NCBI GenBank assembly: GCA_949358305.1
Contig: OX442314.1
Coordinates: 4,216,001 to 4,280,000 of the forward strand
Length of the DNA stretch: 64,000 nt
Origin: Strigamia acuminata
Taxonomy: Eukaryota
Direction: 5' to 3'
Shown piece after piece: positions 15,213 to 57,659 of this stretch. A program made the position numbers and the translations under genes. The notes below the pieces were generated by a model. That model worked only from the letters and a program-made list of their open reading frames with translations. It searched no databases and was not told where the DNA came from. Numbering within the stretch: position 1 is the stretch's first letter; every line of letters begins with the position of its first letter.

Positions 15213-18200
15213 TGTTGTATTTGGAAATGACTGGATTCTCGTGGATGAAAATATATGAGAGGTTTTATTCGCACACGATACAAAGCGTACGCCGTCTCAT
15301 GAAAAACGAGTGACCGGAAGTACGTTCACGTTACGTCATTGGTCACAAGCGTGGAAAATACACCCAACTCCCCCTAGTGGTAGGAGACCCTCATTCGGGA
15401 TTTCAGGCACATTTGACCTGGTGACACACAATAATAACATACACCTTCTTCACCTGGTCAAAGTCAAAAAACAAAGAGATACAAAATCCATGAATGACAT
15501 TGCTAAAAACTAAAAATGGGCAAGTAAAGACAAAATACACTAGTACAATCGAAGAATAAAAGATTAAAGAGTATAACATTGATGCACAACATATGAAACT
15601 TGAAAAATATTAATCTAGTCCACACATCTTCGAACACCAGCACTGCTTCTGCAAAGTCACCGCCTTCGTCAGCATATCCGCGGCCATCTTGTCGGTTCCC
15701 GCGTGCAGTAGCTCCACTTCTCCGTTCTCGACCTCGTCCTTTATAAAACAATAGCGTAAATTAATGTGTTTCGACCGCTGATGCTGCGCCAGTCCTCGTG
15801 CCAACATCTCGGCCGACTCGCTGTCGGTGTACAGCCTCGCAGCGTCCCCCATCAATTCGCTCAGCCCCAGCTCCTCCAGAAATTTCTTGAGCCAAAGTCC
15901 CTCCTTTACCGCCTCGCTAATGGCGATGAATTCGGATTCGCAGCTCGACATCCCGACACACGTTTGCTTCGATGACTTCCATACTACGCCGGCCCCTGCA
16001 AGTAGAAAAATAAATCCAGTAGTCGATTTAGCGTCCTCGGTGTTGCAGTTCCAGCTCGCGTCCACGTATCCTGTCATCTGATCTTCGTTTCGTACGAATC
16101 GCAATTTCTTTCCTTTCGTCCCTTTCAGGTAGCGTAGAATTCTTTTCCCCATCTTCCAGTGTGACAATCCGTGGCTGTGATTGAAGCGGCACAGGAAGTG
16201 AGTCGCATACGCAATGTCGGGCCTCGTTCCCTGCACGAGGTACATTAGCGACCCCATCAGGCTCTGGTATGGCACCTCGTCTGGGTTTACATCGTCTTCG
16301 GGCTTCGGTTGGTCGTGTTTGACCATTGGCGTCGATACTGGCTTGCATGGTCCCATCTGGAAACTTTCTAGCACCTCCTCGATATAGGCTTCCTGCGACA
16401 CGGTGATCGATCCATTTTCGATGTCGCATTCTACGTCAAGCCCCAAGATTCTTGTCGGTGTGCCCAAATCCTTGATTTCGACCGATTTTCTCAGCAAATC
16501 CGCCGTCCAATTTTCGATCCCGATATTCGACGTCACATTCAGCATGTCGTCGACGAAAATCCCCAGTATTGTTGTCCCGCTTGCGTTGTTAAGCACGTAC
16601 ACGCCTTCGTCCGCGTACAGTCGCCGAAATCCATTCTTTCGGAGTATTTTGTCGAGCGTCAGGTACCACGTGCGCCCGGCTTGCTTGAGTCCGTAGATGG
16701 CTTTTAGAAGCTCGCACACCCACTCTTCTCGGTCTCGCTCTTCGTTCCCGGGTGGCTGTTCCATATACACCTTCTCAAGCAGTTTCCCGTGTAGGTACGC
16801 TGTTTTCACGTCGTATTGTCGTACTCGCCAATTTTGTTGGACAGCGATGGCTAGGAGTAGTCGCAGGCTGGCGAGTCGCATCACGGGCGAGTATGTGTCT
16901 TCGTAGTCCAGTCCCGGCCGTTGCCCGCATCCGACGGCCACCAATCTGGCTTTGTAACGCTCGATCTCGCCCTGCTGGTTCTTCTTGATTTTAAAGACCC
17001 ATCTTGACTTCAGCACATTTGTTGCAACGGCTCTTTTCACCAGTCTCCACGTCTTGAATTCCTCGTGAGATTTTAGTTCCTCCTGGATCGCGCTTTCCCA
17101 CTTCTTGTGTTCCGGGGAGTCCTGCGCTTGGACCACGGTGTTTGGCTCGACGTGCTTCACGCTCTTGCAGTATGTGGCGCCTCTTGGCTGCACCACCAGT
17201 CGGTCTGGCTTCTTCTTGATGCGCTTTGATTTGCGTGTTGTCGTGTTTTCGTTAGCTTCTTCGTCGTCTCTGTCACCGTTTCCAGTGGTGGACTCCTCGT
17301 CTTCGGTGGCACCGTTGTCCGTTTCGTTGGGCTCTGAATTGTCTGTTGTCTGCTCCCCGGTCTCTTGCTCGGCGTCGTACGGCGATACGAAATTCGAACC
17401 TTGAGGCGAAGTCAGCATTTCTCCGCCCCATCTCGCCTCGTTGAATTTCAAGTCGCGTGTCGGCTCTAGCTTCTCAGTTTTCGGGTCGTAGACTCGGTAG
17501 CCCTTTCTGTTGACGCAGTAACCCATAAAAATGACAGGTTTCGACTTCGCGTCCAATTTCTTTCGTTTGGAATTATGGATCCACATCTGCGCAGCACAGC
17601 CAAATATTCGAAAATAGCCAACTTGCTGCTTCCGTCCGCTCCAAAGTTCTTGTGGAATCTTGTCCCCGTTTCCTCTTGTCGAGCATCTGTTGCGCACGTG
17701 TGCGGCCGTCGCGACTGCCTCCGCCCAGAATTTGGAAGGCAAAGCCGCCGCCGTCAGCATCGTGCGTGCTGCCTCCATCAGCGTTCTGTTGCCGCGTTCA
17801 GCGATGCCGTTTTGGGCAGGTGAGAATGGCACCGTAAGCTCGTGGTGGACGCCGTTTGATTTCATGAACTCGTCCATTTCGTGGTTGACGAACTCGCCCC
17901 CGTTGTCGGACCGGATACGTTTAAGTTTCGTGTCGGTTTCGCGTTCCACAGCCGCCACAAACTCCTTAAAGTTCTCGAAAACGTCCGACTTCGACCTAAT
18001 AAAATAGACAAACATCTTGCGACTGAAGTCGTCTATTAGCAAAAACAAATATCGACTGCCGCCAATCGTCTCTGTCAGCGGTCCGCACAGGTCCATGTGC
18101 ACGAGTTCCAATATTTTGGTCGATTGGTCGCTCACGATCGTTTTGAATGGTTTTCTGGCCATTTTCCCGGCTGCACACTCGTCGCATGCCCGCCCGTCCT

Positions 18201-19956
18201 TCTGTATTGGCCCCAAACCGTAAACTGCACCTGTTTCGTGCATTTTCGCCAGTGTTGCCGTGTTCAAATGGCACATTCGGTTGTGCCACACATCGATCTC
18301 GGTCGACTGTTGGCACGTGTTAGCTTGCGCGGTCACCACGGTCTCCACGTTCAGTCTATACACGTCCCCGATCTTCGTAGCAGTCATTATCACTCGGTCC
18401 CCGCTCGATATCGTACACTTCCCGCTTCCGAAAGCAACGAGTAAACCCGCGTCGTCGAGTTTTGGCACCGAAATCAAATTGTCATTTAAATCAGGAATGT
18501 ACAGTACCTCCTTCGCGACCAAGTCAGCGTCGTTCGTAATGAATTTCACGTTCCCGCAGCCCATGATTGGGATTTGGCGCCCATCTGCCAGCGTCACCTT
18601 TCGACTTCCGTCATCTGCCACGAACGATTCGAAAAAGTCCCTGTTCGCCGTCATGTGCCTCGTCGCCCCAGAGTCGAGGTTCCATTGCCGTCCTTCCGTT
18701 TGGTCGATTCTGACCTGAAAAGCAAATTCTGGTCGGGCTTTCACAGCTTTGGCGTTGGCGTCTGGCTGCTGGTCCCTCCTCGCGTTTGTTTTGGTCTGCT
18801 TGGAATTATTTTGGCGTCTCCCGTCGTTCTCCTTCTGGCCGCGACAATCTCTGGCCATGTGCCCGAATTTTTGGCAATTGAAACACTTCACGTGTTTTAG
18901 GTCTCGTTTTCCGTCGTGGTCACCGCTTCGTTCGCCGCCCCGATAGTTGTTCTTCGTGCGGCTGGACAGGTTCACTTTATGCAGTTTCTCGACCACTTCA
19001 TCGTCTCCAGTTTGTCGCGATTCCTCCTGTATGATCATGTGCCGCAGCTTGACCATCGTCACCTCATCTTCGTCGCACATGTCAAACGCTCTCTGGATGC
19101 TGTGGTATGCTTTTGGCAGGTTTTGTATTATTAAAGTTCCCACCTCTTGCTCCGAAATTTCGCCGCCAACAGCTCGTAACTGGTTCACCGTCGACTCCAC
19201 ACGTTGCAGGAACTTCGTGGACGTCTCAGCTTTTTCCCACCTCGTTTTGGTCAGCTCTCGACGCAAAATAGTCTGTCTTTGGCGCGCTCGCCCTCGGTGG
19301 ATTTCCTCCAGTTTCTCCCAGCATTCGCGTGCCGTGTCTTTGTTTATCACGTACACTGTCTGCGCTGGCGACAAGGCCTGGACGATCGCGTTCATGGCCT
19401 TTTCGTCCTTGCCACGCCACGCGTTTCTCGCCGCCGCAGGTCCGTTTACAGGTGCCTCGTCGACGATGACCGTCCACCATTCCGACTTCTTCAGGAATAC
19501 TCGCATTTTGAACGCCCACGTGGCGTAGTTTTCATCCTCCAGTTTTTCGATCCTCATCGCATCTCTGTCCGCCATTTTTGAAGGTTGATGGGCGATCTAC
19601 CACGTGTTGGAAATTAGGCCTAACGTCTCGTGGTCCGGTCAGTGGTCACTCCTTCGTCAAAACGCCCGGAAAAGTCGATACGAGATGCAAAAACTCACGC
19701 AGTGTTAGATGCTGTGGCCCATAACCCTTTGTTGTATTTGGAAATGACTGGATTCTCGTGGATGAAAATATATGAGAGGTTTTATTCGCACACGATACAA
19801 AGCGTACGCCGTCTCATGAAAAACGAGTGACCGGAAGTACGTTCACGTTACGTCATTGGTCACAAGCGTGGAAAATACACCCAACTTCCCCTAGTGGTAG
19901 GAGACCCTCATTCGGGATTTCAGGCACATTTGACCTGGTGACACACAATAATAACA
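15213..19956 (-). mobile_element. Intact Ty1/copia LTR retrotransposon
   Basis: 227-bp TG..CA LTRs at 15213-15439 and 19730-19956, one substitution seen; 5-bp TSD GTTTC; PBS GGGTTATGGGCC (tRNA-iMet half type) at ~19712-19727; PPT GGTGAAGAAGGTGTA at ~15440-15454. Confidence 0.98.
15610..19575 (-). CDS. Copia Gag-Pol polyprotein, 1321 aa
   Basis: Gag, CCHC (CFNCQKFGHMARDC), protease LDSGAT, integrase (WHNRMCH..C..C, HMD, RSDNGGEF, NGIAER), RT (YKARLVA, YGLKQA, FVDD), RNase H (YVDASW) in copia order; uninterrupted. Confidence 0.98.
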   Translation of the reverse strand: MADRDAMRIEKLEDENYATWAFKMRVFLKKSEWWTVIVDEAPVNGPAAARNAWRGKDEKAMNAIVQALSPAQTVYVINKDTARECWEKLEEIHRGRARQRQTILRRELTKTRWEKAETSTKFLQRVESTVNQLRAVGGEISEQEVGTLIIQNLPKAYHSIQRAFDMCDEDEVTMVKLRHMIIQEESRQTGDDEVVEKLHKVNLSSRTKNNYRGGERSGDHDGKRDLKHVKCFNCQKFGHMARDCRGQKENDGRRQNNSKQTKTNARRDQQPDANAKAVKARPEFAFQVRIDQTEGRQWNLDSGATRHMTANRDFFESFVADDGSRKVTLADGRQIPIMGCGNVKFITNDADLVAKEVLYIPDLNDNLISVPKLDDAGLLVAFGSGKCTISSGDRVIMTATKIGDVYRLNVETVVTAQANTCQQSTEIDVWHNRMCHLNTATLAKMHETGAVYGLGPIQKDGRACDECAAGKMARKPFKTIVSDQSTKILELVHMDLCGPLTETIGGSRYLFLLIDDFSRKMFVYFIRSKSDVFENFKEFVAAVERETDTKLKRIRSDNGGEFVNHEMDEFMKSNGVHHELTVPFSPAQNGIAERGNRTLMEAARTMLTAAALPSKFWAEAVATAAHVRNRCSTRGNGDKIPQELWSGRKQQVGYFRIFGCAAQMWIHNSKRKKLDAKSKPVIFMGYCVNRKGYRVYDPKTEKLEPTRDLKFNEARWGGEMLTSPQGSNFVSPYDAEQETGEQTTDNSEPNETDNGATEDEESTTGNGDRDDEEANENTTTRKSKRIKKKPDRLVVQPRGATYCKSVKHVEPNTVVQAQDSPEHKKWESAIQEELKSHEEFKTWRLVKRAVATNVLKSRWVFKIKKNQQGEIERYKARLVAVGCGQRPGLDYEDTYSPVMRLASLRLLLAIAVQQNWRVRQYDVKTAYLHGKLLEKVYMEQPPGNEERDREEWVCELLKAIYGLKQAGRTWYLTLDKILRKNGFRRLYADEGVYVLNNASGTTILGIFVDDMLNVTSNIGIENWTADLLRKSVEIKDLGTPTRILGLDVECDIENGSITVSQEAYIEEVLESFQMGPCKPVSTPMVKHDQPKPEDDVNPDEVPYQSLMGSLMYLVQGTRPDIAYATHFLCRFNHSHGLSHWKMGKRILRYLKGTKGKKLRFVRNEDQMTGYVDASWNCNTEDAKSTTGFIFLLAGAGVVWKSSKQTCVGMSSCESEFIAISEAVKEGLWLKKFLEELGLSELMGDAARLYTDSESAEMLARGLAQHQRSKHINLRYCFIKDEVENGEVELLHAGTDKMAADMLTKAVTLQKQCWCSKMCGLD

Positions 19957-26755: not shown

Positions 26756-26784
26756 TCCTAATTCAATTGTCATTTTTTTTTTAG

Positions 26785-27571
26785 ATTGCCTTTTGTGAAG
26801 GTGAATTTACCACTTTGTGAATGTTCGAACGCTATGCACGATCAATACGGCGTCATAAGTAAATTGATTGACATCACAGATCCAACTTCTTCTTGTTCGT
26901 GTCGCCGTCCATGTCAGCAAATAGCTTTTACACCATACACAGATCCAGGTGAAGCAGATAATAAAAAAATAATGACCTTAACTTTTGAACTAACGAATGA
27001 GAATATCAACGTGTATGAAGAACGCTACATCTACGACATTATTGCCTTACTGTCAGATTTAGGAGGCAATCTTGGCCTGTTTCTGGGTCTATCGTTGCTC
27101 TCATTACCTGAAATCACTTGGTATTTGCATTGGATTGTAACAAACCGCAAAAGAAATGGCGATGAGATTCACCATCTTCATGAGATATGCAAAAAAGAAG
27201 TCATTGTGAGTGAAGAGCAAATTAAAACTAAAGGAGTATTAAGAAAGCTTAAGTTTGTGCTAGTTGTAATTAGTACAGGATTGACTTTATACTTGTTGCA
27301 ATATCGCTTAAACTACTATATGGAAGAACCTGTGTCAAAGGTTGTTACCATAGTTCAACGTTGCCACACGGAATTTCCTTCTGTCACACTTTGTGCTGAA
27401 ATTCGTACTGATAAAATGGAACAAGCCAGATTGCAGTTGCTTAACCAGACAAACAAAACCTGCGATGACATGTCACCCTGGAAATTAGTCAGCAATCAAT
27501 TGTCCAAGGAAGATGTTTGGAAGACTCTTAATATCCATCCAACACTTCAATTTAATGACAAGATTACCAAA
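26785..27571 (+). CDS. DEG/ENaC exon 6: TM2 of repeat 1, linker and TM1 of repeat 2
   Basis: CSCRRPC...LLSDLGGNLGLFLGLSLLS, then with no stop FVLVVISTGLTLYLLQ..YYMEEPV..EFPSVTLC; AAA|GTATGT donor. Confidence 0.93.
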
Positions 27572-27633
27572 GTATGTGGGTAAATGAAAACAACTACCAT
27601 ACAAAGTATAATGTATTTAATTAATATATATAG

Positions 27634-28200: not shown

Positions 28201-29912
28201 GTTAAGAATGGAAGATCCGAGCTGACCTAATTGTTTCGACAATCACTCATTGTGCATGGTGTACTCGTATTACTACTGACAATGCACCACTAGCTAAAGG
28301 CTTTTAGCACATGAGAGTCTTAGAACCACAAGCATTTCTGGAGTCTTGCACATTTAAAGAGGTGTTGATATACTCAAAACCACCACAACGTTTACCTATT
28401 TCAGCCGGTTTACGCCTAACTGTGTACTGTGCTCTACTACGTGGAAAAGTAGTTCTGTGCCTTTGACAATGTTGGTAATCGATCACAATGTCTGGAGTTC
28501 TTTACAAATATGGTGTTATGAGCTACTTTTTTGTGCCACTACACCAGTGATATGGCTCGAACAATAGGTCAACATTGTGGTGGTTTTGAGTATAGATATA
28601 TTGATATAGATCTTTCAAATTTCTTTAGAAAAATCAAACTATTTAACAGCAGCACTTATGATTGCGTTGCTAGGACTTTATCCTCCAGAAGTTTGCAATC
28701 AATATATATGGGTATGATTAAAGTGAAATAAGTGGCACAAAAAATTATTTAACTAACTAATCTAACTAACAAGCAAATTCAATAATTTGCCATACTGTCT
28801 CAAATAACCGCCGGAGTGTTTATTACTTTTCCCGACCCGACCACCCGGCGTCTATATGAAGCGCTGTGCTTATTCGGGCCCGACGCCTGTTTGAACCCGG
28901 TATTAAAATGAGGCCGTATGGTAATCACCCCCGTTTTATACTCATTTTCCACTGAAGAATGACTTAAAATTATGACGGTTTACAATGGCTATAAATGCCT
29001 ATTTTCTATCAAGAAAGCGCTGTTGCGCCAATATGATGGTATTTTTACAATATTCTGTGTAAAACTGATAAATGTCTAGAATAAAGTCATTTATGATGTT
29101 TCAAATACAAAGATGTTCGTTTATTAAGAATAAACACTAATTTCCACATGATACTAAAGTATCACGGCATAATTACGAAGATTCGTCTGCTAAAACCCGC
29201 ATTTGTCAATGCTCCATATTGCCACTAGATGGCGCGATCGCAATTAGCGATAAATTCGAATACGAACTTGAAAACCTCATGATTAAATATAAACGTATAT
29301 TTAATCAAGTGAATAAATTGTGTTAAATATTAATATAAATATATATTAAGTATCTGACATTGTTAAATACAATGTAACTTCCATTTCTGCGGGACAGAAT
29401 GTTTAGCGATCAATCGGTCAACCGATCAATCTGATTGGTGGAACCCATTTCCGGTCCTGGGTATCCAGTTCCGGTTGTAACAAGGATTAGCATAATTTGC
29501 ATAAATGCTCCTCCGTATCCACTTCCGGTGATACGGGATTGGAGGGATTCGTGGAACCCATGTTCCAATTGGATGACTGGATTAATCCTTAAATCCAGTC
29601 AGGTTATATAAACCCAAACAATCGGCCATTCCGCAGCTCTGTTTGATTATTTCTGTTTGGTATTGTTACTTAAGAAGTATGATTCGTTGTTCACGTAAAA
29701 AACCTTTTGGTTCTTTGTTGATTTATTCGCAAAGAACCGTTGCATGATTCTACAGAATCATGCCACCGCCGGCAATTGAAGTCGAAGTGCTGGGATTATT
29801 ATGTTGCATAAATGTTACAGTCTACGGTTGCGACGCCGAAGGAGAACCCGCCGTTGTGCAATTCAGTATCCTCCGGACAGGACCAAGTTGTCTTTTTCGG
29901 TATGAACGTATT

Positions 29913-30055
29913 CCGTTACCACGAGTAGCATCGGTATTGTTGAGAATCGGTTCCTTCACCTGATGGTGCCAAAGCAGTCTGTTTTACAGTAACCACGAGT
30001 AGCACCAAGTGTTTGGCAAGCTGATTCTCATGGTATTCGATGCCAAAGCAGTCGG
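29913..30055 (+). other. Two-fold symmetric RNA hairpin with two identical internal loops (second copy 37427-37569)
   Basis: ACCACGAGTA and CAAAGCAGT each occur twice; the arms between them are complementary with many G.U pairs. Confidence 0.7.
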
Positions 30056-30877
30056 TCTATTATTAGTACCGCGAGAGATAAAACTGCTGTGCGGAGCCGC
30101 GAGCTATCGACCCCTGTGTACGTGGTACCGTCAACCACTCGATGGACGACCGTGCTGCGACGCCGGGGACGCTTGATACCGTTCTGCATGGCAAGGCGTA
30201 TATTCTAATCGATGGCAATTGTGTGTTGCGACGGGAAGCTTAATCTTCATTTTATTTATAACAGAAAAACTTAAACTCGACAACCAGTTGGACCAAAATC
30301 AAGTCAGAAGACTTAATCTCATATTGAACTCAATATAACCGATAAGTTGACGACAACTTATTCCCGAAATATCTAAATAAGAATTCACAACGATATGAAT
30401 TAAATATAATTCATAAGTGGAATATTGATAAGTAAATGAATACATTTACTTACACCAATATCCTCCCAAAGTTGTGGCGGTGCAGACAAAGTCAACCGCA
30501 ATGCTCAGATCATTCGATTTATCGACGTGCGATAGTTTACACAGCGAACCAAGGAAACCAGCGAAGCCGTATCGGACTCCAGGACACAGCCATCCGGCTT
30601 AAGATGACATCTATAATCAGGTCGAGCGATGGGGAAACCGCTCCCATATTCCAGACCCGTAGTGATATTATTCTAGGGCCAGTTGGCCAATTCTTTGTAT
30701 AGTTTAATAGCTGATTTAACTTGCCAAATGTCGGCATTAGTCCTATGTATAATTTAGCTCATCCATATTGTTTGCCAACAATAAACTGTCTTGTATTTAT
30801 CTCGTATTGTATTCACTGTTTATTTATTGCGATCTCTTCCCGGTACCATTGTTAAATGGGAGTTGTGGTCGTCACCG

Positions 30878-31500
30878 TCACACGTGGAGGTCCCACCGAG
30901 ATTAGGTTGCAATTAAATTCGATTGAATTGCAACAGTGAATATTGGAGATAAATATTTAACTAAAAGATTTAAGTTAAAAATAGACAGATTAAATTTTCA
31001 GTTTATATTTCCATGTGAAGAAGTTAAACTGATGAAATAGAAATACGTAGTAGATTTTCCTTCATTATTTTCGTTTGAAGATTTTAGGGATTTCAAAGAC
31101 TACCACCTAATCTCACACGTGGAGGTCCCACCGAGATTAGGTTGCAATTAAATTCGATAGAATTGTAAAAGTGAATTTTGAGATAAATATTTAACTAAAA
31201 GATTTAGTTAAAAAACAGACAAGTTTCAAACCATGTTTATTTTCTTGAGAAACACCAAAACAGTCCTTTAACTAGGAATTTCGGAAGTTATAGACCTATC
31301 ACACGATCACTGAAATAGGTTGCAAATTAATTCGATCGAATTGCAAAAGCGAATCTTGAATCCGATATTAACTAAAAAATTTTAGTTAAAACAGACAAAT
31401 AGATTTTCAGTTTATATTTTCATGTGAAAAGTTAAACTGACGAAATGGAAACGTTTAGTGAACTCTCTTTACTATTTTCGTTCGACAATTTAAGGAATAC
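30878..31500 (+). repeat. Three degenerate ~190-235-bp tandem units that include the LTR end and PBS
   Basis: TCACACGTGGAGGTCCCACCGAGATTAGGTTGCAATTAAATTCGAT at 30878 and 31113; degenerate third unit at ~31298. Confidence 0.85.
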
Positions 31501-34066
31501 GAAGTATTTTAAATAAGAAATCAAAAAAGTTTCGAGTGAAATAAGAATACAGATATTTTTTTTCGAAGTTTGTTTTATTTCGAAAAGCTAAAAACATACA
31601 AGTTTAGAAGGCGGACTTCTTACGAATTTATCTTTCCACCTGAAAAGTTAAAACGAAGAAAACACCGCAACTATTTGGAAATATTTACAAGAAATTAAGT
31701 TTCTTGTAACTGTACGTCGACACCGATAGCCAGCGACCACGCGCCATAGCAATACGCGTCGATCTCCGTATCAAACGCAGCAGGGAAGCTACTCAAACCT
31801 TCAATGCAAGGTGCGAACGAATGCTTGGAAATTATGGCGGACAACAGATAAAAGACAGCGGAGAAATGTTACAGAAGGTTCGTAGAGATTTATTTAAGTG
31901 TCGCGAACTAATTTTTCCACTGCCATCGGTACCGAAGATAATTTAGTTGTTGAAGAAAAACAACACACTCCATTTCGCAGAAAAGATTTGCAAATCGAAA
32001 TGAATATTACCTTTATTTGAAGGAATTAACTATTTTCACAAAAAGTACATTTTTTCCTTCGGGACAATGGAAATTAAGAAAATATAAAATGGCGGCGAAT
32101 GAAGTTGCCGACCACGTAGAATAGTATTTTTTACATTGAAAGTTACGAATCACGAAAAACGCTTTCCCTCGGAAAAGTAAAAGGATTTCATTCAATCTTT
32201 CCTTTCGGAAATTTAACAAGTGTTTTAAGTTTCCAACGATATTTGGGTCTCCCAAATTTTGAGAATTTCTAAATGAAATTTAGCTGTTTGAAAAACAACG
32301 AATATTTTTAGTAATCTAATCGGACATTTTCCCACATGATTTCTTAAAACCGGAATAACAAATCCATTTGTGGCTATGAACTTTGCCACATGAAATATTT
32401 ACGGAGCGAATATTTTTTGATTGGATTGAAGCTTTAAAATCAGATAGCTGATTTAAACGAAGAAAATAAGTTTCAAAGTAATTATTTTTCTTTCGGAAAA
32501 ATCAAATAAATCACCGCTGATGAAAAGTTGTATTTTTCCATTCGAAAAAACTAAGAATTGCACAAGATTTATCTTCTATTTTGAACATAGATTTTATTCG
32601 GAAAAGGAAAGATTCTAGATACATTATTTTTCTCTAAAAATTAAGAATTTAGTCAATTTTCCTAAAGGTTAATGGAATGTCATCATATATTTCGTTCGTA
32701 ATTTACGTGTTAAAGTTTAATCAGAAAAACGATTGAATATGTTTTATTTGCGATAAGTAAAAGAAAGGTTCTTTAAAAATGGAATTTCGATGCAAATCCC
32801 ACAGTAAAGGGAATGTTATGTGTGAGCAATTAACGAAAAGTTGGAATAACTTCATTTTATTTCATTCAAAAGTAGTTGTGAAAAATCAATTTCAAATATT
32901 TTTCAAAGAAAAATTATTTTTATCGGAAAAAAGTAATTTACATGTCCTCGCGCGGACCGAGTAGTAAACTGCTTAATTGTGACATCGATACTGTTATTGT
33001 GTCACGTGTTATACGGAATTCCAAACCAGTGAATTACGAATTTTGGCGCGATAGGAATAGAAGTTTGACAGTGAAAGTTCTCCAGATTTGCCTTTTCATT
33101 TGAAAAGTTCAAATTGAGGAAATGCTGCAGCAGATGAAGGTATTTACGACAATTGAGATTTAAATATTCTTTCATTCAAAAGATAAAAGATCTCTGCAAA
33201 AACATCTCGTTATTAGAGATAAGGGGGACGAAAATTATTAAAACGAATAATCAAAGACACGTCCTTCGTAAATATCGCAAAGGAATAACTAATTGTGAAA
33301 ACAATTGTCCGCTCAGGAAAAGTGGAATTTAGCTAGATATTTTCTTTCGAAAAATCAAAGCAATTGTCATCAAAAAAGAAAGATTTGATGAATAATTTTT
33401 ACCCAAAAGTCTAAAGGATTGTCGAATAGTTTTCTCCCGAAAAACAAGTACACATTTGTACCAATAACTTTATCGTTTAAAGTAAAATTTCGAATATTTT
33501 CTTTTGGAAGATTAGAGAATTAGATAATTTTTCTCGCAAAACAAATTTAAAGAATTTTAACGAATTTTTATTTGTTAAAAAAATTTGTTAAAAAAGGGGG
33601 AGATGGATGGTGAAAATTTATTTTTTCACACTCGAAAAATGGAATTTAAACCCGAAAAAGTAAAGACTTGGTCAAATTATTCTTCCTATTGGAAATGAAT
33701 ACACAATGTTGGGAATCGAAAATAGATTTCAATTACAAAGGAATGATTATTTGAACGATAATTGAATAAGAATAAGAAAAATTGAGAGTTTGAGAAAACT
33801 TTATTAAAGTTGTGGTTGTAACGATATCACACACTAACGGAATAATTAAAAGAAAAATATTTTTTGAAGAAAAGTTATTTAATTATTTGGATTGGTAAAA
33901 ATCCCAAAGTTCAAGAAGATTGAAGTAAGTTTATTTTATTTTCATTTGAAAAATACAATATTTTACGAATGTCTTCCCGAAGGAATTTTATTTTATCGGT
34001 AAAATTGAATCTCGAAGGGAACGGACTTAGTAGAGAACTACTAAATAGATGTAACGTCCTTTATAC

Positions 34067-34165
34067 CATTGGCCGACACTAACATCCGCCAATCAGAAGT
34101 TGGGAGATCTAGGGATCCCCAGCCCCCTGCTATTAAAGGAGGACCAGATCAGATACTGATCATTC
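34067..34165 (+). promoter_or_regulatory. Putative internal Pol II promoter (CCAAT boxes, TATA, Inr)
   Basis: ATTGG at ~34068, CCAATCAG at ~34089, TATTAAAG at 34131, TCATTC at 34160 (TATA at -31 from the Inr A). Confidence 0.6.
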
Positions 34166-34407
34166 GCATCCAGACCAGACCAGAAGACGTGTTCCAGAGT
34201 CATCTTGACCACGCCGTCCCGATTTCAGTCACGATTCGAATTTTGTGTGCCGTGTAACCTGCAAAAGCTAACACGTGTCAAACAAACGCGAAGTTTAATT
34301 TTATTTTGTCAAAAGTAAAGTTTAGAAGTGTTTCTTGTTGAAAAGTGTATTATATTCGTCTTCTTTATAAATTAAAGAATTAAAATCGTCAGATTTTGAA
34401 TTTTTTT

Positions 34408-35889
34408 ATGGCTCAAAAACCATTGAATATGATCGATCCAAAAGGAAATAATAAGCAGACAAACTTAAATTTAAGTTCTGTACCACTTGGCGATCAAACA
34501 GAAAAGATTCCCGATCATTTTACTCTGTATTGTAATCGTCATGGACTGGATAAAACCAAGTTTAAAAATATAATCGAAGCTTCAGACTATGTAAAAGCTA
34601 GGAACTGGCGAGATCGTACCCAATCTCAATCTTCACATCAAGATCCAGTACGGAATCCACAAACATACAGCCGAAACTTAGTGAATCAAGATTCTCATAC
34701 TATGTTTCAAACATCCAGTAGGGGATCTAAGTTAGAAAAGTTTAAACCACCTAATTCGGTAGATAAGGGGGAAGAGAATTATAAACCTAATAATTCTCGT
34801 CCAGAGAGTTCGTTAACTAACCAGTCGGTTGTTCAGAACAAATTAAAACTCGTTTACAATCGAGATCAGCTAATTTCAGTTCGATATGCTAATCCAGCTG
34901 AAGCACAACGATATGTGGCTAGCCTTAATCTGTCGATTAACCTACCGCTATCAAAAGAATTGGGAACCGTAAACAAAAGTTTTGGGCCACCAATATCAAC
35001 GCAAAGGAAAGATATTCGGACTCCAAACAAACATTTGCAGTCAAATAACGTACAACAACGTGCCCGATCGCCGATCACAAACTCATGTTTGCGGACGTAT
35101 GATTTGTCTACCAAGAAGAGTCCCCAGCCAAGACAATTCTACCTAACGCCCATTTCAAATCGAAAAAAAGTCAAGCAAACTTTTCCCTTGAAAAAGTATT
35201 ACCAACACGATAATGAGAATGATTTTAAACCTAAAAAAGAAAGTTTTTTGACTAACCCACGGGAGATCCGGTATCAATTCGAACAGTATTGTAAACAATA
35301 CCAGTTAAATTCAGCTGAATTTAAAAATATAAACGAAGCGCAACAATTCGTATTTCGAAATCAATACCGTAACCAACGACTAAAACCCGTCCCAGTCGTC
35401 AATCTGACGGAGATACAACAATTTGCGTCTGGAAAGCAACCCTGCAATATCCAGAATAATTCATCTCAACGAGAGGAATTAAGAACTTCAAAAAAGCGTT
35501 TTCGGTCACCAAGTCCAGCTGGTGATGAAGAAACTTCAAGTACAAACCAACATGTTCAAAAACTGACTGAAAACCCAGGTTTCCAATCATCAGTTCCACG
35601 ACTTAGAGTCAAATATAGATCCCCTCGTTTGTTGCGGGATTTCACAATTCCAAATATGGGTCCTTTCCACGTATGGTTTTCCAATGAGGGTCCCATTCAT
35701 GTATGGTTTTCCAGAGATGACCTAAAACAAAAAGTTGGGTCGTCACGGTCATTTACACTGCCAAGTCAGTACACTGTATGTAACTGCCCAAAGGAAAAAC
35801 GTCGAAAGAAATCAGTACAGCAGGCTGAGAGATCTCGGAAATTCGCAAATATGCGAGCTCAATATTTAGCAAAGAATCATGTTGATTAA
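34408..35889 (+). CDS. Orphan 493-aa protein carried by the non-autonomous LTR element
   Basis: Long intact ORF in otherwise stop-rich AT DNA; internal repeated motif; no gag/PR/RT/RH/IN motifs recognised. Confidence 0.8.
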   Translation: MAQKPLNMIDPKGNNKQTNLNLSSVPLGDQTEKIPDHFTLYCNRHGLDKTKFKNIIEASDYVKARNWRDRTQSQSSHQDPVRNPQTYSRNLVNQDSHTMFQTSSRGSKLEKFKPPNSVDKGEENYKPNNSRPESSLTNQSVVQNKLKLVYNRDQLISVRYANPAEAQRYVASLNLSINLPLSKELGTVNKSFGPPISTQRKDIRTPNKHLQSNNVQQRARSPITNSCLRTYDLSTKKSPQPRQFYLTPISNRKKVKQTFPLKKYYQHDNENDFKPKKESFLTNPREIRYQFEQYCKQYQLNSAEFKNINEAQQFVFRNQYRNQRLKPVPVVNLTEIQQFASGKQPCNIQNNSSQREELRTSKKRFRSPSPAGDEETSSTNQHVQKLTENPGFQSSVPRLRVKYRSPRLLRDFTIPNMGPFHVWFSNEGPIHVWFSRDDLKQKVGSSRSFTLPSQYTVCNCPKEKRRKKSVQQAERSRKFANMRAQYLAKNHVD

Positions 35890-38800
35890 CATGATATGAT
35901 ACACAAAGATTCCCCGATTATAGTGTAAACAGAAAATCCTCTTCTAAAAATCATGACCTCTCTTCTAAAGAAAAGGGGGACAAAATATAAAGTTAAAATT
36001 AACAATTCTCGAAAAGTAATATTACAGTATTAAAAGACAACTAGTTTAAATTAAAATTAGTCAATTGTACAAAGAATACCAAGTGACTCCGGTCATGACA
36101 ATTAAGGGGGACATTTTGATTCTTAAATTGTCAACTCTTATCATCTAAAAGCTATTTATTGTATATTTATAGCGATACATCTGACTAGGCATATGAAATA
36201 AATATTTTGTGATAACACAAATGATGATTTTATGTATGACGAAAGTTTCTTCAAAAAGAAGACTTGGAAATAAATTCTGGACTTGAATTTAGGCTATTAG
36301 AAAAGATTATTTCGGCAGAAAATCAGAACTTAGATAATTCAAGTTAGTTTATGTAAACTCAAATTCGAAATTGGAAGTCACGGTATCTCCAAGATACATC
36401 AAGTCCGAAAATAGCATTTATGCTAATTAGGAGAATAACGAAAACTCTATAAAATATTATATAGTTGTGTTATTAAGGGGGATGTATGACGGTTTACAAT
36501 GGCTATAAATGCCTATTTTCTATCAAGAAAGCGCTGTTGCGCCAATATGATGGTATTTTTACAATATTCTGTGTAAAACTGATAAATGTCTAGAATAAAG
36601 TCATTTATGATGTTTCAAATACAAAGATGTTCGTTTATTAAGAATAAACACTAATTTCCACATGATACTAAAGTATCACGGCATAATTACGAAGATTCGT
36701 CTGCTAAAACCCGCATTTGTCAATGCTCCATATTGCCACTAGATGGCGCGATCGCAATTAGCGATAAATTCGAATACGAACTTGAAAACCTCATGATTAA
36801 ATATAAACGTATATTTAATCAAGTGAATAAATTGTGTTAAATATTAATATAAATATATATTAAGTATCTGACATTGTTAAATACAATGTAACTTCCATTT
36901 CTGCGGGACAGAATGTTTAGCGATCAATCGGTCAACCGATCAATCTGATTGGTGGAACCCATTTCCGGTCCTGGGTATCCAGTTCCGGTTGTAACAAGGA
37001 TTAGCATAATTTGCATAAATGCTCCTCCGTATCCACTTCCGGTGATACGGGATTGGAGGGATTCGTGGAACCCATGTTCCAATTGGATGACTGGATTAAT
37101 CCTTAAATCCAGTCAGGTTATATAAACCCAAACAATCGGCCATTCCGCAGCTCTGTTTGATTATTTCTGTTTGGTATTGTTACTTAAGAAGTATGATTCG
37201 TTGTTCACGTAAAAAACCTTTTGGTTCTTTGTTGATTTATTCGCAAAGAACCGTTGCATGATTCTACAGAATCATGCCACCGCCGGCAATTGAAGTCGAA
37301 GTGCTGGGATTATTATGTTGCATAAATGTTACAGTCTACGGTTGCGACGCCGAAGGAGAACCCGCCGTTGTGCAATTCAGTATCCTCCGGACAGGACCAA
37401 GTTGTCTTTTTCGGTATGAACGTATTCCGTTACCACGAGTAGCATCGGTATTGTTGAGAATCGGTTCCTTCACCTGATGGTGCCAAAGCAGTCTGTTTTA
37501 CAGTAACCACGAGTAGCACCAAGTGTTTGGCAAGCTGATTCTCATGGTATTCGATGCCAAAGCAGTCGGTCTATTATTAGTACCGCGAGAGATAAAACTG
37601 CTGTGCGGAGCCGCGAGCTATCGACCCCTGTGTACGTGGTACCGTCAACCACTCGATGGACGACCGTGCTGCGACGCCGGGGACGCTTGATACCGTTCTG
37701 CATGGCAAGGCGTATATTCTAATCGATGGCAATTGTGTGTTGCGACGGGAAGCTTAATCTTCATTTTATTTATAACAGAAAAACTTAAACTCGACAACCA
37801 GTTGGACCAAAATCAAGTCAGAAGACTTAATCTCATATTGAACTCAATATAACCGATAAGTTGACGACAACTTATTCCCGAAATATCTAAATAAGAATTC
37901 ACAACGATATGAATTAAATATAATTCATAAGTGGAATATTGATAAGTAAATGAATACATTTACTTACACCAATATCCTCCCAAAGTTGTGGCGGTGCAGA
38001 CAAAGTCAACCGCAATGCTCAGATCATTCGATTTATCGACGTGCGATAGTTTACACAGCGAACCAAGGAAACCAGCGAAGCCGTATCGGACTCCAGGACA
38101 CAGCCATCCGGCTTAAGATGACATCTATAATCAGGTCGAGCGATGGGGAAACCGCTCCCATATTCCAGACCCGTAGTGATATTATTCTAGGGCCAGTTGG
38201 CCAATTCTTTGTATAGTTTAATAGCTGATTTAACTTGCCAAATGTCGGCATTAGTCCTATGTATAATTTAGCTCATCCATATTGTTTGCCAACAATAAAC
38301 TGTCTTGTATTTATCTCGTATTGTATTCACTGTTTATTTATTGCGATCTCTTCCCGGTACCATTGTTAAATGGGAGTTGTGGTCGTCACCGTCACAAAAT
38401 CTCCCTTCCTAATAAAGGTTTCATATCCCAACATATTTATCCTAATTGATGCCAACTTCATCCCAATTTTTATTTTTATTTTTATTGTGATCAGAATGCT
38501 CTATTTTGCATAATTACATCAATCGAGGGACACTTTATCTAGTTCTAGGGGGGTCATGCAACCTGTTGGACACCCAAACTCTTATTGCTCATCAGGTCCA
38601 CCCCAACACGTCTCCCCTTTACATTTAGCAAAGTCGCATGTCACGTCATAGCAAACTTTTAATTCTTATAGGTATATAACCTATCATGTTTTAATGAATA
38701 AAGCCAGTCTATCCTGAACTAACATAACATGATCGCTCGAAACTCGTATCTCCCTTGCCAATAAGGTTCCACATCTCAACATATTTATCCTAATTAATGC

Positions 38801-39597
38801 CAATTATACCCCAATTCTTATTTTTATTTTTATAGGAAGATGCACATTCACTAGGTTTGCAAAAATGTACATTTGGCAATAATTAAAGTAAATATGATAG
38901 AATTTAAAACCTTTATTAGGGGGAGAGGGAATAAACATAAGAGAAGTGTGACTGGTATGGTCTCAACCACGACAGTTTAGGGATTTGACTATCGCGGGAG
39001 GGACGCATACTCACGTAATAATTAGACAGGGACTCCAGATTGTTGGGTTTTGGCCTTTAATCATTGTCTTAGGGTTGGAATCCCATGTCTACCCATGTGC
39101 GGCAGTACTGTAATGCACGCAACACCTGTAACCGTCTCGTCACACACAGGGCACAAACCCCATGGGTGACGTGGTCGGTTACCAACGGACATTCTATCGT
39201 ACTTACCCATACGATCCATATGGCCACTCATTGAGACTGCAACAGGCTCCAAGCTATGTCACTGAGCATCACACTGGTGAATGGTGAGAGGAGCAGAGAA
39301 GCAACAGGCACAGCTGCCTTTGCCAACGTCGGGACCGCCACAACACACTTTTATCTTCCAACCGTACGTCCTTCCTCTCTGCTCTCTCGGCTCCGTCTCC
39401 CTCTCACCACACCGCTCCGCTCCCTCCTTCCCCAGCTGGGCCAGTCCACCCTGCAAAGGAATACAGCCTTGGGGCCCCTGGGCAATGTGTGGAGTGATGC
39501 AGGTCACCATGGGTGGCCAAGCAGTCACAGAAGAACAATAGTTTTCTTGGGATTGTTTTTTAGTTGAAGACTTTGTAACTAATCGGGGGGCGCACAT

Positions 39598-40197
39598 CTA
39601 AAATTGTGTAAGAAGGCTAAATATATTGTATAAAAAGGCTGCCCAAATCGTAACCAATCCTCCACCTTGCTGACGTTTTGAAAAAATCTGTTTGTCTTTG
39701 CGTAAGTCGTGCCAGTAATATTGCCATCTGTCTGGGCCATCCAAATTAAACTTTTTTTCATCACTGAACACTACTTTACGCCATTCCTTTTGCCAACACA
39801 CTTTATCCTTTGCAAATTCCACTCTTTTCACCTTGTGTCTTGGTTTCAAAGATGGAGTGGTTTTTCTCTTCTTGTACACTAAGTGTTGACAGTTGCTCGC
39901 AACTCTGGAGAGTGTTGATTTTGAAACATTAATGTCTGGACGCTTCGATAACTCCCCTAGGGTCACATTCGAATTGGAAATTTCACATAAAATTGTTCGT
40001 TTGTGGCGGTCTTGTAGCTTTGATGGTCGACCACTGTGAATTTTGGTGCCATATTTGTCTCTCAATTTTACATAACTGTTGATAAGACCATGACTTCTGT
40101 CCAAAAGTTTTGCTATTTGCCTGTTGGATGTATTCTGTTCACTTAAGATTGATATTTGTCCTTTTTCAAAGTCAGAAAGTCACAATCCATGAGGCAG
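39598..40197 (-). pseudogene. Tc3-like transposase pseudogene (HTH and start of DDE domain)
   Basis: LSDFEKGQI..SGRPSKL..VVFSDEKKFNLDGPD..YYWHDLR; stop near the N-terminus, truncated. Confidence 0.9.
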
Positions 40198-40347
40198 GAT
40201 TACAATGAATGCACAGCAAAAATGAAAGTGAAAGTAACAAATGTGACAGTTAAAAAACATTTAAAAAACGTCATTATAATTAGCTAAAAGCACCCTCTAT
40301 GATCAGTTAAAAAAACAATCGCCCACAACCTTAGAACCAAATGTGGA

Positions 40348-41080
40348 TTTATTTATTTATTTATTTAAATTCAAACACTCCAATGGAGTAAATACATTGT
40401 GGAAAAACGGAAATTATGAATGCGTTGAATATGAATGCGTAGCCGTTTACGCATGTGCTTGCAATGGAAACGGCAACGAGACGCAGAACAGTCAAAGACC
40501 GAGGATCTGACATCAAACGGAAGATTGTTCCAGAGTGACATACACCGATACGGATAGGTCTTCCCAAGATAGGTGGAGATCTCGGCGGTGACTTCAAATT
40601 TGTGGCGTCGAGTAGTGCGGGTGTCCATGTCAGTGTGGTAGTATTCAACTACAGCTCGTGCAGGATGGTCTGGGTTCCGGATGACATCAGCCAGCGATAA
40701 GTCATTCAGGAGCAGTAAGTTGTTCAGCATCAAGATTTTCAGTTTGTTATAAAGGGGAGTTACGTGGGTCTTGTCATGAAACTTGAAGGCGACACGGAGT
40801 ACCCGGTTGTAAGCAGTCGTAAGTTGATGCTTGAAGCGGTCTGGGGAGGAGTTCCAAAATTGGGAGACATACAATATGGTGGGGTGCACTTTTGAGCGGA
40901 TATAGGATATCATCTCTGTGCGAGATAATACACTTCTCAGGTGTTTCACGATGTACGCTGTGCGGGAGAGAAACCTGGTAATGTGGCGGATGTGAGGGGC
41001 GAAAGTCAGGTGAGGATCGAGGATCAAGCCTAAAACTGTGACAGTCTCAACAGGGTAGGGGGTCACCGCCCGGGGGGGTC
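40348..41080 (-). mobile_element. 5'-truncated LINE (CR1/L2-like) 3' end
   Basis: VLGLILDPHLTFAPHI...LWNNLPFDVR, the post-RT region; (TAAA)n tail at 40348-40366. Confidence 0.85.
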
Positions 41081-41283
41081 GACTAAAGGTGATTATGCAA
41101 CACCTAAAAATTACATTTTTGCTATAACAATATAAAAAAAATTTCCTTTCAACGAAAACTTCTTAAAATCTTGTAAAAACACATGTTATAATCAAACAGT
41201 ATAAAGAAATTTATTGTTGGAAAGAATTTTTGGCTGTAACACAGAATTTGTGGGTGGATTTATAATTATGAAACGCACCTTAC

Positions 41284-44010: not shown

Positions 44011-44263
44011 AGTAAGTTTTAATATTTTTTCCATCTTTAATAAAATAATATAACATTTACAACAAATAACATCATTATGATAGCGCCGTATACTGTTTTG
44101 CCACCTTGCAAAATCTTAGTTTCCCAGGTAATAAGTTATCACATTTTTCAAAGCATGAGCACATGTTTTAATTTGCTCATAATAAGTGTGGATTACAAGC
44201 AAAATTATTCAAGAGTATTTATACATATGTTTGATTGCAGTACAGTAAGCCAACTTATTTCAG

Positions 44264-44645
44264 ATTACCTTACATGTCAACATCTAATTTACCAACTTGC
44301 AACACAACGGCAGACATTACTGGTGCCCATTTCACGTATTTGAATAACTCTAACATAAATCAAAAACAATGCAAATGTAAACGACCTTGTGAACATATTT
44401 TTTACCAACCTATTATGCATGCAAATAACGTCTTAGAGGTATTTAAGGTTCATACATTTCTGCACTTTCTAATGGCTGATAGTTTTATACAGAACACGGT
44501 AGAAAAAGAGAAATATCCAACATCTCAGTTGTTAAGCGATGTCGGGAGCATTGTAGGATTAACGTTGGGAATGTCATTACTTTCTTTGCACATTGATATT
44601 TTAAAAGGTTATAAATGGGTTCGACACAATCTGGCTGGTCGATAA
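44264..44645 (+). CDS. DEG/ENaC last exon (TM2 of repeat 2)
   Basis: tttcag acceptor in phase 2; LPYM..CKCKRPC..LLSDVGSIVGLTLGMSLLSL; stop TAA. Confidence 0.92.
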
Positions 44646-52610: not shown

Positions 52611-54575
52611 AATCATTTTTCTGCAGAGTCTGGTCAGCTACAGTACAGAAATGCATCAGGTTTATACAGTTTAATCGAATTGGTGAACGCTACACTCCAA
52701 TGCACTCTTACAACACCAAATAATTTGTGACCATCTTTCACCAAAAACAAAACAAAAAGAAAAGAAACAAACTGCATTTTGTTGCAAGAGAAAACAAAAG
52801 TTTTTTCCATTCAGTTATTAGGCATAAGATTCAGCAAACTGGAACCAAGTCAGCTGCACAAAAGACCCTTTATAGTCCAATACAAAAGCAAATAAAAGAA
52901 ATTCAACTGCACACAAAATCTCTGTATTCTATTCCATTAGGCCTATAGGATTCAGCACTAATATTTGCAAGAAATGGATCATGAATTCAAGGATGAATGA
53001 AACAAACCTGTGTTTTGAATAAATTTCCTTCGGGATAGAGAAATACAAAAAGGAAAAATAAACTCTGCATTCTGTTGCAAGAGAGAACAAATTGGAACAA
53101 AAATCCATTCAGTCATTAGGCCTACGAATATCAGCACTAATACTGAAATATTAAAACGAACGAACGATCGATCGATTTTACTGAGAAATGAAATGTGTGT
53201 TCCTCATATGAATTCTCGGATGAATGGAATACGAGATGCACAATTGAAAACCATCAAAATGGAAATAGAAAAACGATGAGAAAAGAACAAGTAAAGAACG
53301 AGGCGAAGCAAAGTGAACAATGGCCGACAACGAGCGAGACTCGTAACACGAGACACGAGACAGCACACCAGAGAATTGACAATTGCTAACTCAATAAACA
53401 AATGTACAACATACAAAGTGTTAAAACGTACAATTCAACCTGGTGGTAATTCAAGGTGTAATAAAAATTAACTACAGTTATTATGTTGTGACCCGACTGG
53501 ACCGGGGTCAACGAAGAGTTTCTCTCGTGACCTCGTTTCGGGTGTAAGGGGAGCCGCAAGCGCGTCTCCCTTCCCTCAGTGCATTGACATCTAGTCAATG
53601 GACAGGCGTCTGCCCTGAGGGAGTGGGGATGGCTCGTCCACCCCACCATTGGGTGATTCCGGTCACCTGTCAACCCCGCTTTGTGCAACGGAATGTGCCT
53701 TGCACTGAGCGGGCAGAACCAACACAACCATCAAACGAGAAACACACGTAAACCCGTCGTCCTACAAGATCAGGCCCAAGTAAAATATACTGGGATTGAC
53801 CAAGGACAAAGGACAATTTACCGTGAGTACGTTTGGTCAGTGTCAAACTCCGCAGAGTAACCTGCGAGATAAGATTACCACACTATTTTAGCACACCAGC
53901 TAGAAATAGTAAAAACCACTCCAGTTTAGCGAGTTGTGCAGACAAACGGTCGCACAAGCCTAAACTGCAGTAAAACCACGACGAGCGTTCCCGCCGCTGT
54001 GTGACCGCCGGGAGCCAGAAGAGTCCGCCGCTGTGTGATCGCCGGACACCACACAAAAACCTAGACAACAGCCCGAAGTAAGCCTTTTAACTAAGCATTC
54101 ACTCGCGCCCGACCAGCGTGAGCCCGAAGGACCAGCCAGAGACGAGCCGAGGACGCCATATTGCCACGCCGGCCCAAGACGACACCACGTTGCCACAACG
54201 AGGACGCCATCTTGGACACGACCGAGACAACAGACGACCTCGCCGATTCCAGCCAGCTTTCATCATACCTTTACCTTTCCATTTCCCTTCACCCATTCCG
54301 ATTTACCTTTTACCTACCTTTTATATATATATATATATAAGATATATCTGTACATTGTCCCACAGAATAAATCTATATTATATTTTACCTTTTATATCTG
54401 TGTAATCATTTCTTTGGGTAAACCGCTTGAGCAAAGCGGTAGTGAGTTAGTCGAATTAAGTAATCAACCCACGAGTTAGCGACGGTTAGAGTTGAGCGCG
54501 ACACGTGGGGGCCTGTCCGGGATCAAGTCGAATAACTGATTCTAACCTGTGATTACATCATACCCAAAGCAAGAA

Positions 54576-57500: not shown

Positions 57501-57659
57501 TTCAAGTGTAACCAACCGGGCCACTACTCCAATGAGTGCCCAAGAACAGCGAAAGAAGACGCTAAGTTTGACGCGATAATGAAGCAGATGGCAGAGATTA
57601 AACTCGCCATGGCAAAAAACGAGTCAAAAAACGAGTCAGCGCAGGCGGCGAAGAAATAA
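54576..57659 (+). CDS. gag: Gag (1027 aa from the first ATG) with a long low-complexity N-terminus
   Basis: Capsid-like LMTGSAREWY..WDDFLMRF..LRQMPGETIMDY; CCHC CFKCNQPGHYSNEC. Confidence 0.92.
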   Translation: MADNTRVTDSDSDANKRAGSRKGADYHLRSGGPLPKASAHEARQKRRKPKPDRRSASEASHPSRTETRQRLDETERGEEQSHSKLPRSNRDGETSGNEVLSRNQSPRLTHDTEVGSPKAASPIQKTASNTTANSALNTPVTHSRPASVVSEGHKSNSSSVKRVSSQPYSVSGTLIDAMQLAQAEGVRYTLPTGKITVYETLQIVRAALKAHSVSPQITIVEGAHAQQLVDSAQFEADAENEARQAIRERRRKLAEREAQALEYGRTQPNPTTPEEVEIVDRALRAHRYAFHSQQEAERAFMARLRRDDPKSVRKPEVSSSELSDESLEGDPKRTPKAKPKPQPERATPATPSKRDASAREQQTRPRMKALDSATNNAITRLINANNARRNEEQALTSQQQDNPQGTEWQQPVPILKDDESSRRQSHDRTSSRGEGKRDERPKYYRYGNSDSSSDGLESNAPSHHDSERGSGERRRERERDERRERERDDRRRGRKESNSSRRNPPRHSPSPDPSSDPSSNDDRRKEKSSNRRKRSNSPRDREKRRRSENSDHRREEFQDLPRQSAFTDSTGRQYTMGELGRALLGSLKAEGIDLSKRNDRNRSTGDRVKKKYAVSRRDTMSVTGNIRWQFYIQNRFDGSWKAGDRFLDEVIRIKTATKATVGDMLTHGIVELMTGSAREWYQGLKGVNWDDFLMRFDLRYGETPEEVSRKMRGLRQMPGETIMDYDIRARLLFEKAPMEFHATGFNLFFLGGLSEYSQRVLLEERAPTGGSYEEMSAFLFENTIDIEKRYYSALPEAEKAATAKRLKLSAERYGATDKIMRPTEYLSGIMELAEASVGLQIKNKLTSPLPSNPLAAPKKAPTASAMQATLEEVKEGEEAEQNVGKSDEKEEKDDYSTDEEIRSYRDTLSTGCDEEGPLVHLIHRDRAVEEFRARLKPNAGRIPKYFRKNYTPPSKADPEKKKSTEAPRDKSNIRCFKCNQPGHYSNECPRTAKEDAKFDAIMKQMAEIKLAMAKNESKNESAQAAKK

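Follow-up and report, generated by a model that had tools for sequence, protein, structure and literature searches.

How an element with long terminal repeats (LTRs), no genes for its own replication and one intact orphan gene is copied, and what that gene might do for it, is the question raised by a locus of Strigamia acuminata (NCBI GenBank assembly GCA_949358305.1, contig OX442314.1). The window, that is the whole stretch analysed, comprises 64,000 nucleotides (positions 4,216,001 to 4,280,000, forward strand), and all coordinates are counted from its first base. The element spans 28971-38396 (9,426 bp, plus strand; Table 1). A preliminary description, made from the sequence alone, had taken it for a recently mobile, non-autonomous element with a single orphan gene behind its own promoter. 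That description was borne out by the anatomy, an empty site, blank searches and simulations, the promoter remaining a predicted one. The element is real and young and is apparently expanding. It is a multi-copy, gag/pol-less LTR retrotransposon, probably derived from a Ty3/gypsy-type parent that lost gag-pol and kept a 3' accessory gene, and probably moved by the enzymes of another element.

The two LTRs were aligned and match at 1,912 of 1,912 bases. Together with the target-site duplication (TSD; AAAT at both flanks), a primer-binding site (PBS) and a polypurine tract (PPT), these two direct repeats constitute the structure of an LTR retrotransposon, as the preliminary description had it. 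The integrated ends read TA...CA and not TG...CA, a feature that it had missed; 7 of 8 terminal bases are inverted-complementary, one short of a perfect inverted 8-mer. The LTR begins with TA (28971-28972), whereas TG occupies the two nucleotides preceding the 3' LTR. The LTR-PBS and PPT-LTR spacers are symmetrical, with 2 nt each, which is the expected product of integrase end-trimming. The PBS agrees over all 18 nt with the tRNA-Gln3 PBS that a primer of PMC1592299 contains. A second copy of LTR end and PBS lies 235 nt downstream (31113-31180), giving two possible priming sites.

No remnant of gag or pol was detected in the element by tblastn with the gypsy Gag, gypsy Pol and copia polyprotein of the window (best E 0.9), and Rfam and ARAGORN searches of the DNA gave no match. 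The only long open reading frame (ORF) of the interior is the one at 34408-35889; remaining stop-free stretches reach 60-90 codons. In 300 shuffles of the 493-codon ORF, open frames of at most 170 codons were obtained.

Insertion and abundance were assessed in contigs from three public runs with one species label and from two studies (X1 and X2 from one study, X3 from the other). The empty site is represented by a contig joining 28970 to 38406; its depth of 131 in X1 comes close to the 160 obtained by summing the flanks, and its depth of 514 in X2 to the corresponding 560. Flank contigs lose fit at the element edge in X1, X2 and X3. The site is thus empty in most or all chromosomes of those runs, and the insertion is real and unfixed. 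An assembly artefact or an old segmental duplication is hardly credible as an explanation of the repeat: collapsed repeats can give identical LTRs, but TSD, PBS and PPT are in place, the interior is high-copy, and an assembly duplication is excluded by the empty-site joint in X1 and X2 together with the flank contigs that end at the element edge.

In X1, single contigs reach depths of 9,496 in the leader and 9,881 and 8,982 in the ORF, with 0-1 differences over 305-560 nt, and allele-specific flank contigs have depths of 68-75. With one diploid locus as the unit, the interior depth is 56-75 for X1, 40-47 for X2 and roughly 2-6 for X3, contig depth being a rough gauge and not a copy number. Because leader and ORF are equally deep in near-invariant contigs, it is the gag/pol-less form itself that has expanded, and the high depth in X1 and X2 against the low depth in X3 points to a recent burst of this form. 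In the LTR bins and the TATA-initiator (Inr) segment the depth exceeds that of the ORF, with the sharpest contrast in X3 (2,250 vs 215-800, sums inflated by overlapping contigs). Solo LTRs or relatives whose interiors differ, the helper perhaps among them, may lie behind this.

The ORF is preceded by a CCAAT-TATA-Inr array at 34068-34162, as previously noted. This arrangement of two CCAAT boxes, TATA box and Inr occurs nowhere else on either strand of the window. When the 3.5-kb interior was simulated 2,000 times it arose in 1.7% of cases, and in 0.05% of 2,000 simulations covering the last 500 nt, with patterns that were picked after the site had been seen. From the predicted +1 (34162), the 5' untranslated region (UTR) of the ORF is free of ATGs. 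A full-length RNA started in the LTR would hold 57 ATGs upstream of the ORF, so a short mRNA from the internal promoter would be the likely template. At the level of DNA, motif set, spacing and conservation fit an own internal promoter of the Grande GENE23 type. The TATA-Inr-5' UTR segment (34087-34230) is several-fold deeper than the ORF in X1 and X3 and is represented by many variant contigs; related elements may carry other genes behind this predicted promoter.

The 493-aa protein has a net charge of +42, is rich in S, N, K, Q, R and P, and carries basic clusters at 253, 363 and 464. It is mostly predicted to be disordered, with helices as short islands between low-complexity linkers and no long folded block. 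Neither a signal peptide nor a transmembrane segment (top 19-residue hydropathy 0.75), nor a zinc knuckle (CCHC) or protease motif was found in it. An internal repeat relates residues 33-66 to 283-316 (35% identity, E 9e-8), and a third, gapless copy at 133-172 scores 13.2 bits with a profile of repeats 1 and 3, compared with 8.0 bits for the best of 1,000 shuffles. There are thus three repeats of about 35 residues each, predicted to be helical. Repeat 1 was modelled as a small helical unit with a mean predicted local distance difference test (pLDDT) score of 77 and a core of 86-91. Two look-alikes, the RNase H1/caulimovirus N-terminal domain and the Sin3-interaction helix, were rejected as identities of the repeat; both lack a Pfam match and misfit repeat 3.

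Searches with the protein were blank. No match was obtained in Pfam and NCBIfam, among 2,758 candidates of a word search of 5.8 billion proteins with the whole protein, among 32 candidates of a word search of longer proteins with the repeat profile, by phmmer against 1.84 billion representatives, or in the ESM Atlas with the whole protein and repeat 1. PDB sequences gave nothing beyond seven chance rows (E ~1), and metagenome and viral contigs matched neither by protein nor by the LTR-end/PBS pattern. With the repeat-1 model, the best Z of a fold search across 48,161 chains was 3.6; Foldseek at E<=0.001 returned nothing for this model or for the single-sequence model of the whole protein (pLDDT 41, unreliable). 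The protein libraries do not contain even the ORF itself, so the lineage is possibly absent from them and the blank searches are weak.

On these results the ORF is not recognisable by sequence as a gag or env, given the missing Pfam match and membrane segment. It could still be a highly derived Gag, or the disordered half of one, which supplies particles and borrows Pol. Zebrafish Bik-2 is non-autonomous and Gag-only (PMC12067270), the Gag of the neighbouring gypsy element has a long, basic, low-complexity N-terminal half, and the single-sequence model is too poor to exclude a Gag fold. However, the ORF starts 3.5 kb past the PBS and behind its own predicted promoter, no gag or zinc-knuckle match was found (best Pfam profile E for a Gag domain search 0.39, to an unrelated family), there is no similarity to the neighbouring Gag, and the short helix islands leave no long folded block. 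A derived Gag is therefore considered very unlikely.

The preferred origin of the element, gag-pol loss from a Ty3/gypsy-type parent with retention of the 3' accessory gene, is consistent with the position of the ORF. Additional ORFs usually sit between pol and the PPT/3' LTR (PMC7264820), and the ORF is placed just before the PPT. The neighbouring autonomous gypsy element, which has an equal 2-nt LTR-PBS spacer and in which gag and pol are followed by an orphan ORF (from 63143), also has a plan that fits the proposed parent. After such a loss, the LTR would drive a full-length RNA that would be packaged by Gag and Pol of a helper. This RNA would be primed with tRNA-Gln and the product integrated, with 2 nt trimmed per end; the intact PBS, PPT and LTRs would let the element be copied in trans, and the internal promoter would yield the short mRNA for the 493-aa protein. 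The protein itself may be, with somewhat less than even confidence and by analogy, a basic, disordered and probably nuclear adaptor that contacts nucleic acid or a host factor through its repeats, and which would raise expression of the family or shield it from silencing in trans. The nuclear role is suggested only by the charge, the clusters of basic residues and the example of Grande. Similar trans roles have been proposed for retroviral accessory proteins and for maize Grande GENE23.

Several points weigh against this account. No helper element was found, and the only gypsy element in the 64-kb window differs in both LTR and PBS; a parent combining gag-pol and the 493-aa ORF is hypothetical. 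The copy-number argument is made on contig depth, with the coarseness noted above. Among the ORF substitutions in the variants listed, 4 are silent and 10 replacement (n=14), where 22-28% silent changes are expected by chance; the variants listed are 40 of 235 rows, and the indels 12 of 51. Of three skips in X3 contigs, the frame was established for one only, the one with known filler. The preliminary description had assumed that the protein is kept under selection. The listed ORF variants display no purifying selection, as neutral change predicts, and the intact copies are explicable by the recent burst alone. ORF3s within one rotifer genome likewise look neutral (PMC5408684).

The part of that assumption that stood is found in the diverged relatives, in which frame, repeats and CCAAT boxes are kept. 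A contig of a 19%-diverged relative is gap-free across 300 coding nt. Eleven of the 12 indels listed are of 1-2 bases and lie outside the ORF; the remaining one, inside it, is of 3 nt. In the X3 contigs, the sequence resumes after the three skips 0-4 codons ahead of repeats 1, 2 and 3; the skip whose filler is known preserves the frame, with an in-frame start that is 27 codons shorter. In a more distant relative, contigs start or lose fit at 34545 and 34583, in the core of repeat 1. In the predicted promoter of one relative, 18 of 63 bases differ and none of the 10 in the CCAAT boxes (p 0.025). To judge from these alignments, frame, repeats and promoter seem to be constrained over long times while the linkers drift.

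The same relatives could be read in another way. Those diverged by 14-19% have single-locus depth (67 and 168 in X1) and could be a host gene; ORF and promoter would then have been captured from a lineage-specific host gene, be carried passively and be intact through the recent burst. The complete CCAAT-TATA-Inr array resembles a host-gene promoter, the ORF variants look neutral, and the possible absence of the lineage from protein libraries that lack the ORF itself would hide such a gene. Capture is nevertheless judged improbable: no relative was found among the 1.84 billion representatives, no intron-like joint occurs among the 5 joints listed, and both X1 and X3 show a greater depth for the promoter segment than for the ORF, which marks this segment as a feature of the family and not of a single host locus.

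A further alternative accepts the same element and differs in the role of the protein, which would be a translation regulator in which repeat 2 has turned into an eIF4E-binding motif. As a mimic of an eIF4E-binding protein (4E-BP) or of eIF4G, it might favour the mRNA of the family or damp host silencing genes. Residues 150-159 fit the extended eIF4E-binding consensus, YX(R/K)X2L-hydrophobic-X2(R/K/Q) (PMC8558276; also PMC6061780), within a disordered basic protein and with a hydrophobic stretch 10-30 residues downstream. The pattern is absent from the three other long transposable-element ORFs of the window and is found in 1.2% of 20,000 shuffles, a rarity that overstates the surprise because the motif lies inside repeat 2 and three of its fixed positions, the R, the L and the last R, have counterparts in repeats 1 and 3. 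The repeat scaffold may thus be the source of the fit. In addition, no PDB chain matches the motif stretch at E up to 10. Two relative contigs lose fit just past the motif (X3 record 23, X2 record 14), and two others align through it at 81%. Such a regulator is regarded as unlikely. Rather unlikely, too, is the full proposal built on it, in which a satellite retrotransposon without replication genes would steer translation or silencing for its family by a separately promoted repeat protein with an eIF4E-docking motif.

With gag-pol loss as the favoured origin, the element was compared with described systems. Among the closest is TelKA2n of the bdelloid rotifer Adineta vaga, a non-autonomous LTR family that has lost most of gag-pol and kept a third ORF (PMC5408684). 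Both are invertebrate non-autonomous elements with neutral-looking variation and with a gene kept after gag-pol loss, a loss that is probable for the present element. The ORF3 of TelKA2n is, however, env-like, part of gag is left there, and expression of ORF3s reportedly goes through spliced RNA (PMC5408684); the present element has no membrane segment, no gag and a predicted internal promoter. Young, polymorphic, non-autonomous elements with one intact gene are also known as Bik-1/Bik-2 (PMC12067270) and plant TR-GAG (PMC13570524), but that gene is gag, of which no sign was seen here. Maize Grande GENE23 and other plant additional ORFs are orphan genes between pol and the 3' LTR with an own promoter and a proposed regulatory role, and some recently active Retand elements are non-autonomous (PMC7264820, PMC11963269). 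The GENE23-type ORFs are antisense, from plants and mostly beside gag-pol, whereas the present ORF lies on the PBS/PPT strand, is thus not antisense to the LTR transcript, and is the sole gene of an animal element.

LARD elements (non-autonomous, >4 kb; PMC13570524) and the cqUNK families of Culex (PMC3286476) share size above 4 kb, non-autonomy, LTRs, PBS, PPT and interior repeats with the element, but are described as non-coding, in contrast to its intact 493-codon gene. At 9,426 bp it is also unlike TRIM elements (<1 kb). LTRs of 1-2 kb, mostly 4-bp TSDs and 9-12 kb in total are found in the Osvaldo lineage of Ty3/gypsy, which uses tRNA-Lys and has gag-pol (PMC3286476); with tRNA-Gln and no reverse transcriptase, the present element is not assignable to a lineage. 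In a literature search covering the main texts of mostly open papers, neither an LTR-encoded eIF4E binder came up nor an LTR family of animals that lacks gag and pol and carries a sense, self-promoted orphan gene other than env. The suggestion of an undescribed helper/satellite system was overstated, as no helper was found and one-gene non-autonomous LTR elements have been described (TelKA2n, Bik-2, Retand).

Table 1. Features of the LTR element and its insertion site (window coordinates).
Feature	Position	Strand	Remarks
Target-site duplication, left	28967..28970	.	AAAT; empty site seen in other runs
5' LTR	28971..30882	+	1,912 bp; TA...CA ends
Candidate signals inside 5' LTR	CCAAT 29565, TATAAA 29607, AATAAA 30780	+	
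PBS, tRNA-Gln	30885..30902	+	18 nt; 2-nt gap after 5' LTR
Leader	30878..31498	+	three degenerate repeats, 78-92% alike; extra full PBS 31120-31137
Non-coding interior	31499..34067	+	AT-rich, ~30% GC; expected place of gag-pol; no gag/pol remnant, no Rfam match
Predicted internal promoter	34068..34165	+	inverted CCAAT 34068, CCAAT 34089, TATTAAA 34131, Inr TCATTC (+1 34162)
Orphan ORF	34408..35889	+	493 aa
Helical repeat 1	34504..34605	+	residues 33-66; predicted small helix-loop-helix unit
Degenerate repeat 2	34804..34923	+	residues 133-172
YNRDQLISVR	34855..34884	+	residues 150-159, within repeat 2; fits extended eIF4E-binding consensus
Helical repeat 3	35254..35355	+	residues 283-316; 35% identity with repeat 1
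Polypurine tract AAGGGGGA	36475..36482	+	ends 2 nt short of 3' LTR
3' LTR	36485..38396	+	identical to 5' LTR
Target-site duplication, right	38397..38400	.	AAAT

The element lies between, and on the same strand as, ASC-like exons at 26762-27583 and about 44235-44640, and likely sits in an intron of an ion-channel gene. The open frame 26762-27583 contains two Pfam stretches, the end of an ENaC/ASC channel unit and then the apparent first membrane helix of another, and is possibly part of a tandem-fused channel gene; further ASC-like exons occur at about 2051, 10025 and 44235. Inverted repeats resembling miniature inverted-repeat transposable elements flank the insertion at 28369-28594, very deep in all four runs, and at 38401-38927, which starts at the first base past the TSD. 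An intact gypsy element with a 1-kb LTR occupies about 53487-64000. It encodes a Gag of 1,037 aa and a Pol of 1,383 aa, and pol is followed by at least one orphan ORF, from 63143 to the window end, possibly spliced and with no Pfam match. Its PBS is presumably of tRNA-Pro type. This autonomous neighbour shares with the element the 2-nt CG spacer between LTR and PBS and the first LTR bases only; LTR and PBS differ. The minus strand carries a young copia element at 15213-19956, whose 227-bp LTRs are 99.6% identical and whose frame of 1,328 aa is intact, and, at 39598-41162, a Tc1/Tc3-like transposase piece and a piece resembling a long interspersed nuclear element. The ENaC/ASC exons and the Tc1, copia and gypsy elements agree with an invertebrate host.

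As a rule, LTR elements that are non-autonomous have no coding capacity or retain gag or env. An element with an orphan gene only isolates an accessory gene from gag-pol, and this isolation lets the function of accessory genes be asked, a question left open in PMC7264820. The repeat domain of the protein has no match in anything searched. Because one species offers both high-copy and low-copy samples and the insertion is unfixed, cause and effect become comparable, and an eIF4E-docking satellite, if true, would explain the roughly tenfold copy-number difference between these samples.

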